DNA of 64,000 nt from a virus (Duplodnaviria > Caudoviricetes): the IMG/VR virus record IMGVR_UViG_3300033273_000833, positions 64,001 through 128,000 of that record. One strand, 5' to 3'. The position numbers and the translations under genes were made by a program. The notes below the pieces were generated by a model. That model did not search any database. It saw only the letters and a list, made by a program, of their open reading frames with translations, and was not told the DNA's origin. Of the stretch, positions 2,699 to 51,822 are shown piece after piece; position 1 is the stretch's first letter; every line of letters starts with the position of its first letter.

Positions 2699-3062
2699 GG
2701 GCGTGTACTGGATTCGATTTAAATTGGATTAGTATACTGCAAGTAGGAGTTGCATCTGGCTCCTCAAAAAGGTGCAAACAATTACATGGCAACAAAAACC
2801 GTGTTAAAGCTTTCGGCCTTAAAGCTAAAAAGCTTGCCCTAGCAGCTTAGTTCTGCTACCTCGTAACCTTTGACGCAGATAAAAGGATTACGGGGCCATT
2901 AATCTGCAAAACAGAAAAAGTTTTCTTGCTTCACAAACTGCAAATAATTGAAACAAGAAGTTGGATGTTAATATCATAACTGTAAAAAAAATTAACTAAA
3001 CTTGTAGGCGTATATCTACAGAAAATTTAAAGACGCGGGTTCGACTCCCGCCACGTCCACCA
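2699..3062 (+). ncRNA. ssrA: tmRNA (364 nt); tag (A)GNKNRVKAFGLKAKKLALAA* at 2788..2850
   Basis: 5' GGGCGTG pairs with 3' CACGTCC-A-CCA including a G3.U wobble (Ala identity); GGATTCGA D-loop; GCGGGTTCGACTCCCGC T-arm; internal ORF ending LALAA-TAG. Confidence 0.95.
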
Positions 3063-46012: not shown

Positions 46013-46382
46013 GCAATCATACAAGCGTATATTTAATATATTATATTCAAGTCATTATAAACATGAACGATCCTCTACCGTCTCAGAAATTGATGTAAAA
46101 TCGCGAGCAGCTTGGGATGTTTTATTAAAAACTCAGCCTCAAAGATCCAAGCATGAAATATATGTGGCTTTTTGTAAAGACTTTGAAAATAAAAAATTTG
46201 CTTGTGCAGAATTGCAGAACATTAAAAGTAAACTTTTTCATGATTTTGATCAAGTTGCTTGGCAGGAAGTTTTGGGTTCAAATATTATCAATCACACAGA
46301 TCTACCAGACGAAAAAATATGTGCAATAATTTTTTGGCACCTGACAATGAATTCTTTCGAGCTAAATAAGACAAATGGATAG
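45987..46382 (+). CDS. hypothetical protein
   Basis: 131-aa ORF in tandem. Confidence 0.55.
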   Translation: MNFSQLINKQSYKRIFNILYSSHYKHERSSTVSEIDVKSRAAWDVLLKTQPQRSKHEIYVAFCKDFENKKFACAELQNIKSKLFHDFDQVAWQEVLGSNIINHTDLPDEKICAIIFWHLTMNSFELNKTNG

Positions 46383-47319
46383 ACAGCCTTGGTGGTTCGA
46401 TAGAAACCTTGACGAAATTATAGGAGAGAATCCTATTATTTTAAATAATGTTTACATTGGGGCGAAAGGCTCTGTTTTTAACGAGCAAAAACAACCTATA
46501 TACTTAAACAACATAAAGGAAACGCATGAATCTGCTAAATTCCACAAATCCCAAAAAATTCATGAACTTAAAGGAGAATATATATACATGCTTTCTGAAC
46601 ATGATATCCAAGTATATGGGCATATTGGAGAAGATTTCTCTAGGCTTAGATTTTTTGAGGATGATAAATTTAAAAAATGCTCGGTTCTTAAAAACGTAGG
46701 ACATTTCACAAGCTGGCAAGGGCTTAGTAAAAGAGAATGCCTAACAAAACATCTAGAATTTTTTGGCTACCCTCCATCTCGGCAAAAGGAATTAACCTTA
46801 AGCCCCTCTCCTTCGGGAATTACTTATAAGATAGACACCCTACATTTAGCGCCTCGAACCATTAATGTTGAAAGTATTAATTTTTTCACTCAAACATGGA
46901 GGAAAGCATTATCTCTCCCTCAATATAAAAATAAAAACAATAAAATTTATTTATCACGACCTCATCGACCAGATCAGCGCGCCGTGCTTAATAATTCTGA
47001 AGTTGAAAAGTATTTAAGGCAAGAAGGTTTTTATATATGGACAGGTAAAGAAAATCTTGAGGATCAAGTGCATCTTTTCAGGGATGCTGATGTAATTATT
47101 GGGCCTCACGGAGCCGCTTTTTTTAACTGCATTTTTTGCCAAAACAAACCTTTAATATTAGAATTCATGCCCTCATCAAGGAGTGTATATATGTTTCGAA
47201 ATCAATCTCATATTATTGGTAACAAGAACCATAAAGTAATCGAATGCGATTCGGATAAAAATTGGAATCATGAAATAAATATAGATATAATTAAAAATGA
47301 AATACTTGCTATACGATAA
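46375..47319 (+). CDS. GT61 (DUF563) family glycosyltransferase
   Basis: KIYLSR..RAVLNNSEV..EDQVHLFRDADVIIGPHGAAFFN. Confidence 0.85.
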   Translation: MDRQPWWFDRNLDEIIGENPIILNNVYIGAKGSVFNEQKQPIYLNNIKETHESAKFHKSQKIHELKGEYIYMLSEHDIQVYGHIGEDFSRLRFFEDDKFKKCSVLKNVGHFTSWQGLSKRECLTKHLEFFGYPPSRQKELTLSPSPSGITYKIDTLHLAPRTINVESINFFTQTWRKALSLPQYKNKNNKIYLSRPHRPDQRAVLNNSEVEKYLRQEGFYIWTGKENLEDQVHLFRDADVIIGPHGAAFFNCIFCQNKPLILEFMPSSRSVYMFRNQSHIIGNKNHKVIECDSDKNWNHEINIDIIKNEILAIR

Positions 47320-48049
47320 TCTAGTGCGCGGTGCAGGCCTTGGTCACTTAATGAATTGCTATAATTATGGTCTAGACTATAGCATCAGAGAAGACATGGA
47401 ATGGGTTCCTATCAGAATTAAGTGTGGACATCATTTAGGCTCAGGTGGGCATGTAATAGAAAATGAATTAGGGTTACCTATTTTCGAAGATTCTTATCGA
47501 GAAAATATTAAAAAAAACCATAAATACGAACATAAAGAGTATAATCCAAAATATAGTCCAACATCAGAATCTACAGAGCTGACAGGAAAAATATTAAAAG
47601 ACTGGTATACGACTTCTCGAAAAGGGCTCTCAAGTAAGTTTTTAAGTCAAGATAAAGTCAATATATGCATTTCGATTAGAAGGGGGGATATATCCGCCAC
47701 CCCAAACCATTCAATGAGAGATCGGCTTCGGCCCTTAAGTTACTATACAAATATGTTGAATGAAATTATTAAAGAAAATGGCGTATCTAAGTATAGAATC
47801 ATTCTCTCTACTGATTTGCGTGGGCATCGTGATTGCCTAGTTGATATGGACAACCAACCTCATTCAGTGGAAAAAATATTCAAAAACCACTTGGATGATT
47901 TAATATTCCTGCCTTTTTGCGAAGATGATCCAGACTCCAATGAATATCATACTTTTGATTTTTTTCATACAGCGATAGCTTCTGATTTTTTCATTGGCAG
48001 TAATAGTGGTTTTAGTCATATTATTGAAAATTATTATAGATCAAAATGA
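47297..48049 (+). CDS. GT11/NodZ-like glycosyltransferase
   Basis: GAGLGH; ICISIRRGD; SDFFIGSNSGFS. Confidence 0.55.
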   Translation: MKYLLYDNLVRGAGLGHLMNCYNYGLDYSIREDMEWVPIRIKCGHHLGSGGHVIENELGLPIFEDSYRENIKKNHKYEHKEYNPKYSPTSESTELTGKILKDWYTTSRKGLSSKFLSQDKVNICISIRRGDISATPNHSMRDRLRPLSYYTNMLNEIIKENGVSKYRIILSTDLRGHRDCLVDMDNQPHSVEKIFKNHLDDLIFLPFCEDDPDSNEYHTFDFFHTAIASDFFIGSNSGFSHIIENYYRSK

Positions 48050-48501
48050 ATGAAAGTGAAAAAAAGTTTTGCGATATCTGTGTTTCAAGAAATTGGAGCG
48101 TAAAAAAAGCGTCAAAATATCAAGACATGCATGAGCATTGGGATTTTAAAGTGAGAGATTCTCTAATTGATGTCAAAGGGCCTAAAAAAACTTCTAGACA
48201 TGATGCTTGTTTTAATTATAATGAAGCTTGGATAGAGCTTCAAAATGTAAGAGGTCAAAAAGGTTGGCTTCGTGGTAAAGCAGATTATATAGCTTTTGAG
48301 CATATAGATCATTTTTTAATCGTGAACCGCCAAGACTTATTAAATTGGTGCAAAAATAAAATCGAAACCTCCTCTTTTGTTGCAAGTCCTAAAGAAGCTT
48401 TGTATAAACTTTATCGCCGAAAAAACCGCAAAGATATTATTTCTATTATAAAAATAAAAGATTTTCAAAAAGATATAAAAACTTGGAAACTCAAACAATA
48501 G
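48046..48501 (+). CDS. PD-(D/E)xK nuclease-like protein
   Basis: EHWDF..IDVKG..WIELQNVRGQKGWL.GKADYIAFE. Confidence 0.6.
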   Translation: MNESEKKFCDICVSRNWSVKKASKYQDMHEHWDFKVRDSLIDVKGPKKTSRHDACFNYNEAWIELQNVRGQKGWLRGKADYIAFEHIDHFLIVNRQDLLNWCKNKIETSSFVASPKEALYKLYRRKNRKDIISIIKIKDFQKDIKTWKLKQ

Positions 48502-48505
48502 TGCG

Positions 48506-48763
48506 ATGTACGACAATGGCTTAAACAATGGATTTGAAGAAGCTCATCAAAAAGGACTTCATCGAGGCTTTGATCTAGGCTGGTCATACAAAGGAAGGTT
48601 TGATCGCCAAATAATACAAGATAAAATAAACGAACTTAAGGTAAAATATGATATGCGAAAGTCAAAAAAAACTTTGCATGAAATTAACGTATTACAAACT
48701 GTTTTAGATCAAATAAAAGAACATAAATCTAACAGAGAAAATATAACTTTAAATTTTTGGTAG
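48506..48763 (+). CDS. hypothetical protein
   Basis: GxxxG repeats (GFEEAHQKGLHRGFDLG). Confidence 0.55.
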   Translation: MYDNGLNNGFEEAHQKGLHRGFDLGWSYKGRFDRQIIQDKINELKVKYDMRKSKKTLHEINVLQTVLDQIKEHKSNRENITLNFW

Positions 48764-48786
48764 GCTTGTGTAAATAATGGAAAATT

Positions 48787-49290
48787 ATGAACTTATATAA
48801 CATTGCAAAACACTGTAATTCACCCGAAAAAGTATACGGAGTAGTTGAAATACCCAAAGACACAAACGTAAAGTATGAATATCGCCCTGATTTAGAAGCA
48901 TTTATTTATGATAGGAGCTTATTAAGCTCTATGGTTTATCCATCTAATTATGGCTTTATCCCTAGTACAAAAGCTGAAGACGGAGACGCCTTAGATGTGT
49001 TGATTTATAATGGAACTCCTATTGACAGAGCTACTATAGTAGAGTGTAAAATAATTGGTGTATTAGACATGGAAGACGAAGGGCAAAAAGATTACAAAGT
49101 TTTAGTAACTCCTGTTTCTCATGTTAAAAAATATCGAGGTCTTGAGGACATTGACCCTCATTTTTTAAATATATGTAAAAATTTCTTTTCTCATTACAAA
49201 GACTTAAATGGAAAAAAGGTAGAAGTTTTTGAATGGCATGATAGTGATTTTGCTAAAAATATAGTCGAAAAAAGTTATATCAAATATTAG
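48787..49290 (+). CDS. ppa: inorganic pyrophosphatase (family I)
   Basis: VEIPK..KYE..DR..YPSNYGFIP.T.AEDGDALDV..MEDEG..DYK. Confidence 0.95.
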   Translation: MNLYNIAKHCNSPEKVYGVVEIPKDTNVKYEYRPDLEAFIYDRSLLSSMVYPSNYGFIPSTKAEDGDALDVLIYNGTPIDRATIVECKIIGVLDMEDEGQKDYKVLVTPVSHVKKYRGLEDIDPHFLNICKNFFSHYKDLNGKKVEVFEWHDSDFAKNIVEKSYIKY

Positions 49291-49311
49291 TGGTGTAATG
49301 CTTTGTGTACT

Positions 49312-49701
49312 ATGGAACACAAACATCTTTTAATAAATGCAACTTTCAAGGAAACCCCATTTACAAATGTAGATTTCACAAATAAATGGCTTTTAGATAT
49401 TGTTGACTTAATAGGAATGGAAGTGCTTCACCCACCAACTTCTGTTAGATGCGAGCAAGAAGGAAATAAAGGCATTAGTGGGTTTTGCCTTATAACCACA
49501 AGCCACATTTGCTTACATTCATGGGAAGAGAGAGAGCCGAACTTACTGCAACTTGATGTTTACAGCTGTAAAGATTTTGATCGAAATTTAATTAGAAATG
49601 AAATCGAAAAATTCAAACCTCTTTCTTTTGGATTCAAGTTTTTGGATAGAAAAATCAAAAACACAAAAGGTTGGGCTGTTTTTGACGAAAATAAAGCGTG
49701 A
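49312..49701 (+). CDS. speD: pyruvoyl-dependent S-adenosylmethionine decarboxylase-like proenzyme (T-SH variant)
   Basis: GISGFCLITTSHICLHSWEE..LQLDVYSCKDF. Confidence 0.8.
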   Translation: MEHKHLLINATFKETPFTNVDFTNKWLLDIVDLIGMEVLHPPTSVRCEQEGNKGISGFCLITTSHICLHSWEEREPNLLQLDVYSCKDFDRNLIRNEIEKFKPLSFGFKFLDRKIKNTKGWAVFDENKA

Positions 49702-50468
49702 AAATATATTTCCGACATTACTCAGGGGCAATTACTGAATATGATTATTTATTTTTTGACTGCATGGCAGAAGTTTCTTTACCTGAAGAAGATAAAGCTT
49801 TATGTGAAGGTTGGTTACCTGATGATTATTTAATTAAAAAAGACTCTTTAGGTAATATTTCAAAATCACATTGGTATCAAGCAAGGCAAACGAGAATTAA
49901 TTTAAGTAAATTTTTGGATACCCGAAGCACTAGAAAAGCTCGAAAGAAATGTAAACAAATAACAACTAAATGCTTAAACGCAAAAGAGATAGATTTAAAT
50001 ATTTTACAAGATATTTTTGATAAATATTTTGAGTATAGAAATTTCAAGAAATGGGATTTAGAACCATTGATTTTAGCAGAGCCTCATAGAAAATATTTTT
50101 TAATTTATTATTTAAATGAAAAACCTATTGCATTTACATTCCTGAGAGATGTTGGGTCGAGTAGCGTGTTCTCAACTCAATTTGCATGGGACTATGAAAA
50201 CCCGAAATTATATTTAGGCAAATATGCAAATCTCGCAGAGATAGACTATTGTATCGCAAATAATAAGAATTATATGTACCTTGGTTTTGGTTATGAAAAA
50301 TCTTGTATGTATAAAGCAGATTATAAAGGTTTTGAATTTTGGACAGGAGAGAATTGGTCTAATGATACAGAACAATATAAATGGTTGTGCGAAAGAGATT
50401 CTAAAATAATTAAAACAAGTGATTTGGATAAAATAAAGAAATATGATGATAAAAATTTTTTTAAATGA
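49698..50468 (+). CDS. aminoacyl-tRNA-protein transferase, Ate1/Bpt-like
   Basis: ALCEGW..RQTRINLSKF..FAWDY....LYLGKYA.LAEI..C...YMYLGFGYEK.CMYKADY..FEFW. Confidence 0.7.
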   Translation: MKIYFRHYSGAITEYDYLFFDCMAEVSLPEEDKALCEGWLPDDYLIKKDSLGNISKSHWYQARQTRINLSKFLDTRSTRKARKKCKQITTKCLNAKEIDLNILQDIFDKYFEYRNFKKWDLEPLILAEPHRKYFLIYYLNEKPIAFTFLRDVGSSSVFSTQFAWDYENPKLYLGKYANLAEIDYCIANNKNYMYLGFGYEKSCMYKADYKGFEFWTGENWSNDTEQYKWLCERDSKIIKTSDLDKIKKYDDKNFFK

Positions 50469-50917
50469 TTAAAGATTATATAGAATACATTTCGCTTAAA
50501 AGAAAAGAATTGGGAGGTCATGCAATTTGCCCGTTCGCTAAAACTTTTTTAAATAAAGTCGAAATAATAGAGTCGAAAGATTTTTGGGTCGATGCTATCA
50601 AATGCATGGACAATAAAGATCACCCAATGTTATATCTTATATATGGAGACAGAAATAGATATGATACTGAATGGCTTAAGTGGTTCTGCGAAATACATGA
50701 GCAATATTCAAAAGATAAGGACTTGTGGTTAATATGGGATCATCCCGACCAAATAAATAAAATAAACGGAATTGATACAAATAACAAAGAATATGCTATT
50801 CTGTTAATACAAAAATTATCTGAATTAAATAAATATTCTGAAAAGTTACATAAAACAAATTATTATGGATTTTGGGATGAAAAATACTATAATAAAATAG
50901 TGGAAAGGAGAAAATAA
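50465..50917 (+). CDS. hypothetical protein (DUF1415-like CPFA motif)
   Basis: LGGHAICPFAK..WDHP..YAILLIQKLSEL. Confidence 0.55.
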   Translation: MIKDYIEYISLKRKELGGHAICPFAKTFLNKVEIIESKDFWVDAIKCMDNKDHPMLYLIYGDRNRYDTEWLKWFCEIHEQYSKDKDLWLIWDHPDQINKINGIDTNNKEYAILLIQKLSELNKYSEKLHKTNYYGFWDEKYYNKIVERRK

Positions 50918-50919
50918 AA

Positions 50920-51111
50920 ATGAAAAAACTTTGGTTAATTTGGGCTAGAACACTAGATCATCGCGTTGGTAGAACTGATGACGATCAGCCCGATATTCCA
51001 ATTTTATCTTTGCGAGATGCTCAATTTAGTTTAATCTTGAGGACGATTATAGTCGTTGTAAATATAACAACTTGTTTCTTTATAATAGCAAATATAATTA
51101 AAAATTGGTGA
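50920..51111 (+). CDS. small membrane protein
   Basis: WLIWARTL..LILRTIIVVVNITTCFFIIANII. Confidence 0.65.
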   Translation: MKKLWLIWARTLDHRVGRTDDDQPDIPILSLRDAQFSLILRTIIVVVNITTCFFIIANIIKNW

Positions 51112-51118
51112 TTTTTTC

Positions 51119-51147
51119 TTGATTTTTCGCAAATAATATGGTATATT
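51119..51147 (+). promoter_or_regulatory. sigma70-like promoter (leaderless)
   Basis: TTGATT-17-TATATT with upstream TG; ATG at 51155. Confidence 0.7.
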
Positions 51148-51154
51148 TATACCC

Positions 51155-51559
51155 ATGTATTTAGGTAGTCACGAATTAGTTGAATTTTATAATTGCGATG
51201 AAGATATTTTAAAAGATTCTGATTTAATAAAAAGAATATTTATTGAGTCTGCTAAACTGGGTAATGCAAATATAGTTAATAGTCTATTTCATTCTTTCAG
51301 TCCGTATGGGGTCACAGGAGTCTTAGTGATTGCAGAAAGTCATATGAGTATTCATACATGGCATGAATTTAATTATTGTGCCGTTGATATATTTTCTTGT
51401 TGCGATAAATTAAATAATAAAATTGTTTTAGAAGACTTAAAAGACAAACTATTCAGCAGTAGATATGAATCAAAACTAATTAATAGGGGGAATAAATATA
51501 TTATCGAACAAAGTGCAAATAAAAAGTTGACAAATAAACAAAAATCTGTCATTATATAA
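51155..51559 (+). CDS. speD: S-adenosylmethionine decarboxylase proenzyme (canonical E-SH)
   Basis: LGSHELVEFY.C..HSFSPYGVTGVLVIAESHMSIHTWHE..AVDIFSC. Confidence 0.93.
   Translation: MYLGSHELVEFYNCDEDILKDSDLIKRIFIESAKLGNANIVNSLFHSFSPYGVTGVLVIAESHMSIHTWHEFNYCAVDIFSCCDKLNNKIVLEDLKDKLFSSRYESKLINRGNKYIIEQSANKKLTNKQKSVII
51527..51555 (+). promoter_or_regulatory. sigma70-like promoter (leaderless)
   Basis: TTGACA-17-CATTAT; ATG at 51562. Confidence 0.75.
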
Positions 51560-51561
51560 AC

Positions 51562-51822
51562 ATGGTAATTAGAAAAGAATTAAAAAACGCCACTTTTGAA
51601 TACGATGAAGAGAAAAAAATATTCACCATTATGGAAGCTGATGGTTTTAATGGTTATATTGAATTAAATAAAATTTATGCTTTTTCTTTTATGCGTTTTG
51701 TAATCAGAATGGCTCAGAGAAATTGGCTAAAAAGTGCAGATTCTTTTAATAAAACTGAAGAACTTTTAGACTCTATTGAAGAGGAAGAAGATAATCCAAA
51801 TCAATTAGAGCTTTTTAATTAA
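51562..51822 (+). CDS. hypothetical protein
   Basis: 86 aa, acidic tail. Confidence 0.65.
   Translation: MVIRKELKNATFEYDEEKKIFTIMEADGFNGYIELNKIYAFSFMRFVIRMAQRNWLKSADSFNKTEELLDSIEEEEDNPNQLELFN

Follow-up and report, generated by a model that had tools for sequence, protein, structure and literature searches.

The DNA considered here, referred to as the window, is a 64,000-nucleotide stretch of marine phage sequence corresponding to bases 64001-128000 of a complete 203,067-bp IMG/VR virus record, with a G+C content of ~32%. Its plus strand carries at 49698..50468 a gene for a 256-amino-acid homologue of the aminoacyl-tRNA transferases of the ATE/Bpt lineage, which begins with GTG, lacks the four-cysteine (Cys4) site and the GFRRSG arginine, and contains the acceptor-loop sequence GWLPDDY. 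This transferase gene is the middle member of a tightly packed cassette. Its GTG overlaps by 4 nucleotides the TGA (GTGA; GCGTGAAA) of an upstream gene (49312..49701, plus strand) for a SpeD-derived pyruvoyl decarboxylase paralogue of the SpeDA/SpeDC type, which is matched by the AdoMet_dc profile at 46 bits and has a TTSH processing site. The transferase stop codon overlaps the ATG, at 50465, of a downstream gene (50465..50917, plus strand) for a 150-amino-acid protein assigned to phrog_10325 (PHROG match, 2.2e-23). The cassette is discussed here as a possible route for tRNA-dependent aminoacylation of an amine.

The transferase open reading frame (ORF) is a real, conserved gene. A search of 5.8 billion proteins returned homologues in 214 clusters at E<=1e-3, clustering at 50% identity gave 249 representatives, with 94 at E<=1e-10, and the gene was found on 119 confirmed viral contigs in IMG/VR. 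Residues 1-22 are conserved across 85 homologues, M1 and G10 being nearly invariant, which supports the GTG start over an internal Met at which some metagenome gene calls begin, giving 234-residue forms. The clade appears viral in every locus examined, i.e., the 119 IMG/VR contigs and a few contigs from metagenome-assembled genomes (MAGs). An alignment-based scan of genome contigs yielded seven MAG loci with transferase relatives, and the one that was checked, L085, proved to be a phage fragment carrying a T4 baseplate gene.

Family and Fold of the Transferase

The only Pfam domain recognized in the transferase is ATE_C, which matches residues 121-214 at 39.4 bits against a gathering cut-off of 25 and also matches 43 of 59 relatives; no PHROG matched the protein. 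Canonical Bpt proteins score 119-157 bits with ATE_C, versus 39 for the phage transferase, and the NCBIfam arginyltransferase/Bpt equivalogs were not reached: the best gave 42.3 bits where 170 are required, and the others 19-36 where 205-267 are. A Pfam-type search found no ATE_N domain in the transferase or anywhere else in the phage genome. When a profile of the 59 relatives was compared with the PDB, ATE1 chains came out on top (E 1.4e-9), with ordinary GNAT acetyltransferases behind them. The protein is concluded to belong to the ATE_C superfamily lineage without being an orthologue of Bpt or Ate1.

An AlphaFold2 model of the transferase, built on 85 sequences, has a mean predicted local distance difference test (pLDDT) score of 94.5 and a predicted template modeling (pTM) score of 0.89. 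Foldseek ranked the human, yeast and K. lactis ATE1 structures first (E 2.4e-9 to 5e-8, ~270 columns) and A-PGS/MprF and FemX next (~145-190 columns). An independent comparison of the model with representative structures by VIA-align gave ATE1 at Z 17.1 (root-mean-square deviation 4.7, 225 residues across 1-256), the soluble domain of MprF at Z 15.6 (194 residues), and L-PGS and FemX both at Z 14.1 (161 residues for FemX). These were followed by Sbb17, an aminoacyl-tRNA-dependent peptide synthase bound to streptothrisamine (Z 12.5), and by plain acetyltransferases at Z ~12 or less. Judged by its sequence and predicted fold together, the transferase is an aminoacyl-tRNA-dependent GNAT enzyme whose nearest family is ATE. 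The resemblance to ATE/Bpt far exceeds what chance would give.

Other families of tRNA-dependent transferases were matched less well. The LPG_synthase_C (DUF2156) domain of Pfam gave no match to the transferase at E<=0.1 and matched 1 of the 59 relatives, at 3.8e-4. The FemAB domain likewise gave no match to the transferase, and the related PF13480 matched 17 of the 59 relatives weakly. Leu_Phe_trans, the domain of the L/F-transferase Aat, did not match the transferase at E<=0.1; the L/F-transferase is also not among the structural matches listed for it, which excludes nothing. The protein has no membrane segment, and neither a flippase nor a membrane domain is encoded beside it. A sequence-only reading of this DNA had named the gene Ate1/Bpt-like and had allowed that a better match to FemAB/MprF-type transferases might displace that assignment. 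The family name stands, ATE/Bpt being nearest by both ATE_C score and ATE1 Z score, and the competing matches are weaker and partial.

A distant ATE-like clade that lacks the cysteines and carries a GFLP…FYLARSVR sequence was also observed in bacterial MAGs (L087:4827-5693, L088:3314-4096). Its neighbors include, in one case, a Peptidase_M90 gene; in another, the gene lies between those for a GARS-like ATP-grasp protein and an HlyD protein, a locus that looks like a peptide-product cluster.

Residues Kept and Lost

Functional residues of this family have been mapped in the Ate1 protein of K. lactis, where C23, C26, C95 and C96 form a Cys4 zinc site and a positive pocket receives the acidic N-terminal residue of the substrate. 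Arg80 is essential, the R80E protein being dead. Arginine is bound in a pocket of S255, S273, E277 and Y289, positions that are A, A, Q and L in the Leu-transferring Bpt, and His178, Tyr303 and Lys304 lie at the tRNA end and catalytic site, with His178 binding the 3'-end phosphates of the tRNA (PMC9351520). The counterparts of these residues were tallied in an alignment of 85 family members and 27 canonical Bpt proteins, the latter drawn from gammaproteobacterial genomes. One unpublished-genome locus (L135) was kept out of the alignments, and no conclusion depends on the unpublished genomes G151 and G049, which count only within the 76/151-genome tally.

The catalytic side of the enzyme is well preserved. 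Y205, equivalent to Y303, is present in 75/85 family members and K206, equivalent to K304, in 84/85, and both are found in 27/27 Bpt proteins; G38, R66, Y110, K/R114 and W220 are likewise kept in the phage family and in Bpt. On the donor side, the position of the Arg-binding Glu (E181, equivalent to E277) is Glu in 79 of the 85 members, and in Bpt it is Gln in 18/27 and Glu in 6. Position 159 (S255) is Ser or Thr in the family and Ala in 25/27 Bpt proteins, and W164 corresponds to W260. This residue pattern suggests a donor pocket closer to that of ATE1 than to that of Bpt, and because the pocket is of the ATE1 type with a conserved Glu, Arg or another basic residue is the probable donor.

The acceptor side has been rebuilt. 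Both arginines of the GFRRSG motif are found in 27/27 Bpt proteins. At the position of Arg80, by comparison, the phage family has Leu (41), Ile (23), Ala (8), Thr (3), Cys (2) or other residues and Arg in 0/85, the window reading GWLPDD, and the second arginine is mostly replaced by Pro. Two aligned Cys columns, filled by C in 27/27 Bpt proteins, hold W (83/85) and A or S in the phage family. The position of His178 is His in 27/27 Bpt proteins; the five commonest residues there in the family, N, G, K, D and Q, account for 79/85 members, His not among these, and the neighboring basic K/R114 is retained. Beyond an invariant Gly, the acceptor loop is highly variable in the wider family (GWLP, GWIP, GWAV, GWQI, GFID and others), whereas the donor side is conserved; R63 and a GFEFWTGxxW motif are invariants specific to the phage family. 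The defining feature of Asp/Glu recognition was looked for and is absent. Because the pocket for an acidic N-terminus and the metal site are both lost, the acceptor is probably something other than an N-terminal Asp or Glu.

The Upstream SpeD Paralogue

The mechanically called ORF of the upstream gene starts at a TTG at 49303, and the ATG at 49312 is its probable start. Its product is 39% identical and 65% similar over the full length to gp22 of Pelagibacter phage HTVC201P (AXH71538; E 2e-33), a protein shown experimentally to have lost S-adenosylmethionine (AdoMet) decarboxylase activity and to decarboxylate L-arginine with a Km of 0.87 mM (PMC9992855). Close relatives of that arginine decarboxylase are ornithine decarboxylases (PMC10407285). 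Ser67, His72 and Cys89 of the window protein are invariant, representing the processing Ser, a His five residues on and a downstream Cys (TTSH…H…C). Because it is closest to the proven HTVC201P enzyme and its Ser/His/Cys set is invariant, the SpeD paralogue is predicted from sequence to be, most probably, a pyruvoyl enzyme that decarboxylates arginine or ornithine.

The window also encodes a canonical SpeD (AdoMet decarboxylase; 51155..51559, plus strand) with an AESH site, matched by AdoMet_dc at 117 bits and by TIGR03330 at 118.6 bits against a cut-off of 75.65. The paralogue resembles it in just a 35-residue local match (E 4e-7). This canonical gene is a second, separate polyamine gene and provides context only.

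Conservation and Partners of the Transferase Across Phages

The pairing of transferase and SpeD paralogue is a stable feature of large phages. In 18/18 related large-phage loci (17 by a stricter tally), in which the transferase is 67-84% identical, the paralogue directly precedes it, and in most of them the stop codon of the one overlaps the start codon of the other. The genes that flank this pair vary among the 18 loci, with a pyrophosphatase gene present in 3 and canonical SpeD in 4. The phrog_10325 gene is directly downstream of the transferase in 12/18 and within 2.5 kb in the rest. In two MAG contigs (L085 and L086), the transferase and phrog_10325 genes occur together in convergent orientation.

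Two further forms of the transferase have a different partner. A second clade, referred to as group 2, comprises ~50 loci of smaller phages, on contigs of 5-50 kb, in which the transferase is 36-41% identical and the overlapping upstream gene encodes phrog_3704 instead. The third form, found with phrog_3704 and phrog_10325 (L075-L080), consists of ATE_C only and is 145-149 amino acids long. A tblastn search with the transferase, the group-2 proteins and the short forms found no match among 50,697 GenBank phages, so that no cultured phage in that set has the transferase. The short proteins (e.g., L077:5926-6363 and L080:1927-2376) were observed to lack the whole N-terminal half and always to accompany phrog_3704 and phrog_10325; their acceptor-binding part may be supplied in trans.

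The phrog_3704 gene is abundant in marine phages (112 GenBank phage records, 2,265 clusters) and was not found in the genome of the window's own phage. In cyanomyophages and pelagiphages it is labeled "PurM"/phosphoribosylaminoimidazole synthetase or "ferredoxin" (e.g., L035:5366-6001, L080:2364-3017). No Pfam domain (AIRS and ferredoxin included), NCBIfam family, PDB profile or Atlas entry matched it, and by sequence these names look like legacy misannotations. Its AlphaFold model is too poor to read (pLDDT 51.7), with best matches to Tudor/KOW-like barrels at Z<=6.2, which is noise level. A role as a second decarboxylase found no support, BLASTP against the SpeD paralogue giving E 0.7. In Flavobacterium phage vB_FspM_immuto_3-5A (L081:3687-4645), the gene just before phrog_3704, whose end overlaps it, is a 104-amino-acid ORF annotated as TiaS (tRNA-Ile2 agmatinyltransferase), an unverified depositor annotation that offers another hint of agmatine or tRNA chemistry.

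The Downstream phrog_10325 Protein

Alignment of the phrog_10325 proteins, which also occur in cyanophages, revealed two motifs, G..CP[FY]A, which is invariant, and DHP. The likeness to DUF1415/DUF6875 is at the level of motifs, CPFA and HPD being held in common. Comparison with DUF1415 by hhalign gave a probability of 45.6%, and Atlas feature neighbors of the protein carry DUF1415/DUF6875. Neither Pfam domain matched the window protein, and one relative reached E 0.03-0.06. An identity as an AglA-like haem enzyme of the YqcI/YcgG family (PF08892) found no support in sequence, with no Pfam or PDB profile match and an hhalign probability of 0.1% against one member. DUF1415 and canonical Bpt are not generally linked in bacteria: the two genes are adjacent in one gammaproteobacterial genome (G082) and apart in 8 others that have both. 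In the G082 locus (L099:1483-2758) a canonical Bpt gene (GFRRSG, Cys-rich) comes directly after a true DUF1415 gene.

Proposed Function and Alternatives

These features can be brought together in a proposal to which we assign a probability of roughly 40%, in which the remodeled transferase catalyzes tRNA-dependent transfer of Arg, or another basic residue, onto an amine such as agmatine or putrescine. The enzyme would be a soluble, minimal ATE-lineage transferase that retains the GNAT core, the Tyr-Lys pair and, in a donor pocket of the ATE1 type, the conserved Glu. It would draw Arg (or another basic residue) from charged host tRNA and join it to a primary amine made by the neighboring decarboxylase, agmatine or putrescine, to form an N-aminoacyl (arginyl) polyamine. 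The positive charge of the amine would be met by D42 and D43 of the acceptor loop, and the downstream DUF1415-like Cys protein would modify the product further. An amine is taken as the most likely acceptor from two features, the predicted co-translation of the transferase with a SpeD-derived decarboxylase and the pair of acidic residues in the loop (GWLPDDY); in this scheme we infer the donor, the small-molecule acceptor and the product from the homology, predicted fold, residue pattern and gene linkage described above. A broader version, in which Arg-tRNA arginine is joined by an ATE-type enzyme to the decarboxylase product and a Cys-containing DUF1415-like enzyme finishes it, the ATE fold having been recruited in viruses for varied acceptors, each tied to a different gene product encoded upstream (SpeD paralogue in one case, phrog_3704 in the other), is tentative and, on present evidence, somewhat doubtful.

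Several observations weigh against the amine proposal, and the main weakness is the second clade. Five group-2 records that are 67-93% complete contain no AdoMet_dc/SpeD-like gene and no phrog_10325, so a phage-encoded decarboxylase is no general requirement for the transferase, and the theme common to both clades may instead be a protein partner or substrate encoded upstream. The acceptor-loop motif does track the partner, being GWLPDDY in 17/17 decarboxylase-partnered genes and GW[IL]PL[SP]WY in 50/50 phrog_3704-partnered genes, but the two partner classes are also the two clades, so that roughly two independent events lie behind the association. SpeDA-type genes stand alone in pelagiphages as plain polyamine genes, and overlapping start and stop codons are frequent in phages; the adjacency could for both reasons mean that the two genes are expressed together and yet serve different pathways. 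The choice of donor, read from the alignment, hangs on a single conserved Glu, and the amine proposal draws on sequence, a structural model and gene context.

If the common theme is a protein, the enzyme would be an aminoacyl transferase acting on the N-terminus or a side chain with changed specificity, directed at a phage or host target with an N-terminus other than Asp or Glu. We think this somewhat unlikely. Every characterised member of the ATE family has proteins as its substrates, no structure matches the full-length model better than ATE1, and the catalytic residues are kept. In addition, the upstream gene product, whether SpeD paralogue or phrog_3704, is tightly coupled in every clade, an arrangement that would fit an enzyme-substrate or enzyme-adaptor pair, and the group-2 phages lack the decarboxylase that the amine proposal calls upon. 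Candidates would be a protein with a basic N-terminus bound by D42/D43 or the enzyme's own operon partner, and the outcome would be either degradation, e.g., by Arg addition followed by the host L/F-transferase and ClpS-ClpAP, or altered activity of the target. Against this, the parts of the acceptor pocket that mutagenesis had pinpointed, namely R80, the Y25 region and the Cys4 site, are lost, ClpS was not found in the phage genome, and no candidate substrate was identified.

A far more specific protein-directed scheme was put forward in the sequence-only reading, which proposed that the phage adds Leu or Arg to N-terminal Asp or Glu in the manner of Bpt or Ate1, for delivery to ClpS-ClpAP, and pairs this N-degron route with a C-degron route through a transfer-messenger RNA (tmRNA). 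The tmRNA is genuine (2699..3062, plus strand), being detected by ARAGORN and by Rfam RF00023 at 130 bits, with the tag GNKNRVKAFGLKAKKLALAA (…LALAA). The phage genome has no other tRNA-like gene and no tRNA genes at all, and 4/5 related large phages (G001, G002, G003 and G005) also possess one. Together with homology to the ATE family, this is what speaks for the scheme, which is nevertheless highly improbable. The acceptor Arg is present in 0/85 family members against 27/27 Bpt proteins, and the R80E substitution abolishes Ate1 activity (PMC9351520). The Cys4 site, His178 and ATE_N are missing as well, the equivalog scores fall far below their cut-offs, and the genome lacks ClpS. The tagging of N-terminal Asp and Glu is thus not upheld. 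The paired degron system fares no better, as it rests on the sharing of one genome; the tmRNA lies 47 kb from the transferase, unlinked to it, and is a feature shared across the phage clade.

Non-protein acceptors other than amines were also weighed. A glycan or lipid had been suggested as an alternative in the same reading, and the transferase might aminoacylate a lipid, cell-wall precursor or glycan in the manner of MprF/aaPGS or FemX, for example in the host envelope or on the phage's apparent sulfated glycan. MprF (Z 15.6) and L-PGS and FemX (Z 14.1) come within ~1.5-3 Z of ATE1, and glycosyltransferase genes of the GT61 (46375-47319) and GT11-like (47297-48049) types lie 1.7-3.3 kb upstream of the transferase. 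Nonetheless, such an acceptor is improbable: the MprF and FemX matches span ~145-195 residues versus 225-270 for ATE1, Pfam returns ATE_C and not LPG_synthase_C or FemAB (LPG_synthase_C in 1/59 relatives), no related locus has glycosyltransferases near the transferase, and both a membrane segment and a partner flippase are lacking. In naming a non-protein acceptor, the suggestion made in that reading comes closer to the gene context, which points to an amine made by the decarboxylase rather than to a glycan or lipid.

Surrounding Genes and Expression Signals

A small conserved protein of 63 amino acids with a hydrophobic C-terminal segment is encoded at 50920..51111 on the plus strand, next to the phrog_10325 gene, and is a candidate member of the cassette. 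It is 76-87% identical in 13/18 related loci, which makes it more conserved than the transferase, and in 5 of these loci it comes straight after the transferase or phrog_10325 gene. The cassette is preceded by a complete inorganic pyrophosphatase gene (48787-49290; Pfam, 158 bits), which occupies that place in 3/18 related loci.

A promoter scan of 48000-51700 found 24 sites versus 22.3 in shuffled sequence, i.e., no excess, and the operon is for that reason not defined by the scan. A GTGTAA motif occurs in gtGGTGTAATGC (window 49291-49311), ~13 nucleotides ahead of the probable ATG of the SpeD paralogue at 49312, and may be a phage-specific, perhaps late, promoter element.

Implications

To our knowledge, ATE/Bpt enzymes are otherwise known solely as protein N-degron writers. 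An enzyme that keeps the tRNA-dependent chemistry and replaces the acceptor site would broaden the known roles of the ATE fold. If its acceptor is a polyamine precursor, the cassette would represent a new auxiliary metabolism in abundant ocean phages that taps the host pool of charged tRNA, and would be tied to the recently found phage SpeD-derived arginine/ornithine decarboxylases; an arginyl-polyamine, if it is made, would be a hitherto unreported metabolite produced in infection. If the acceptor is a protein, the transferase would represent a phage-specific protein-tagging system of new specificity. The proposal, if true, would also offer a first clue to what phrog_3704 (>2,000 clusters) and phrog_10325, both very common in phages, do.

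Comparison With Known Systems

No description of phage ATE-like genes or of a transferase/decarboxylase cassette was found in the published literature, and neither of the two papers characterising phage SpeD-derived decarboxylases mentions a transferase neighbor (PMC9992855; PMC10407285). The closest known relatives of the transferase are ATE1 (PDB 8tzv, 7wfx, 8e3s) and Bpt, with which it shares the GNAT core of ATE_C, the overall fold across all 256 residues of the model, Y205/K206, R66, G38, W220 and Y110, and a donor pocket with the Ser, Trp and Glu typical of ATE1. The phage protein differs in being about half the size of ATE1, in lacking the Cys4 Zn/Fe-S site, the GFRRSG arginines and His178, and in being encoded by a phage in an operon with a decarboxylase. 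The C-terminal domain of MprF/aaPGS and FemX also belong to the aminoacyl-tRNA-dependent GNAT superfamily and provide the second-best structural matches (Z 14-15.6). Their coverage is partial, however, with no family-level sequence match, and their acceptors, phosphatidylglycerol and a peptidoglycan precursor, are not suggested by the conserved neighbors of the phage gene. For the SpeD paralogue, HTVC201P gp22 is the natural reference. Both proteins have a shortened architecture relative to true SpeD and the same Ser/His/Cys set, but the processing site is ETSH in gp22 and TTSH in the window paralogue, and the pelagiphage gene adjoins ribonucleotide reductase, with no transferase beside it.

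For the cassette as a whole, the nearest parallel comes from argolaphos biosynthesis in Streptomyces monomycini, in which AglC uses Arg-tRNA to attach arginine to a small primary amine, aminomethylphosphonate, giving AMPn-Arg. The arginylated compound then passes to AglA, an N-hydroxylase of the YqcI/YcgG family whose haem is ligated by Cys (PMC12866846). In the argolaphos cluster, the ligases that depend on tRNA are GNATs of the PF13480/COG3146 type and not of the ATE family (PMC8976061). The phage cassette is similar in that a transferase probably using Arg-tRNA is encoded beside an enzyme that makes an amine and a small protein whose Cys is invariant. It differs in that its transferase is of ATE lineage and that phrog_10325 has no detectable similarity to YqcI/YcgG. 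The analogy is a working one, and would cover how the cassette might operate rather than the families of its parts. Within that scope, AglC and the streptothrisamine enzyme Sbb17 would serve as precedents for tRNA-dependent transfer of an amino acid to small amines.

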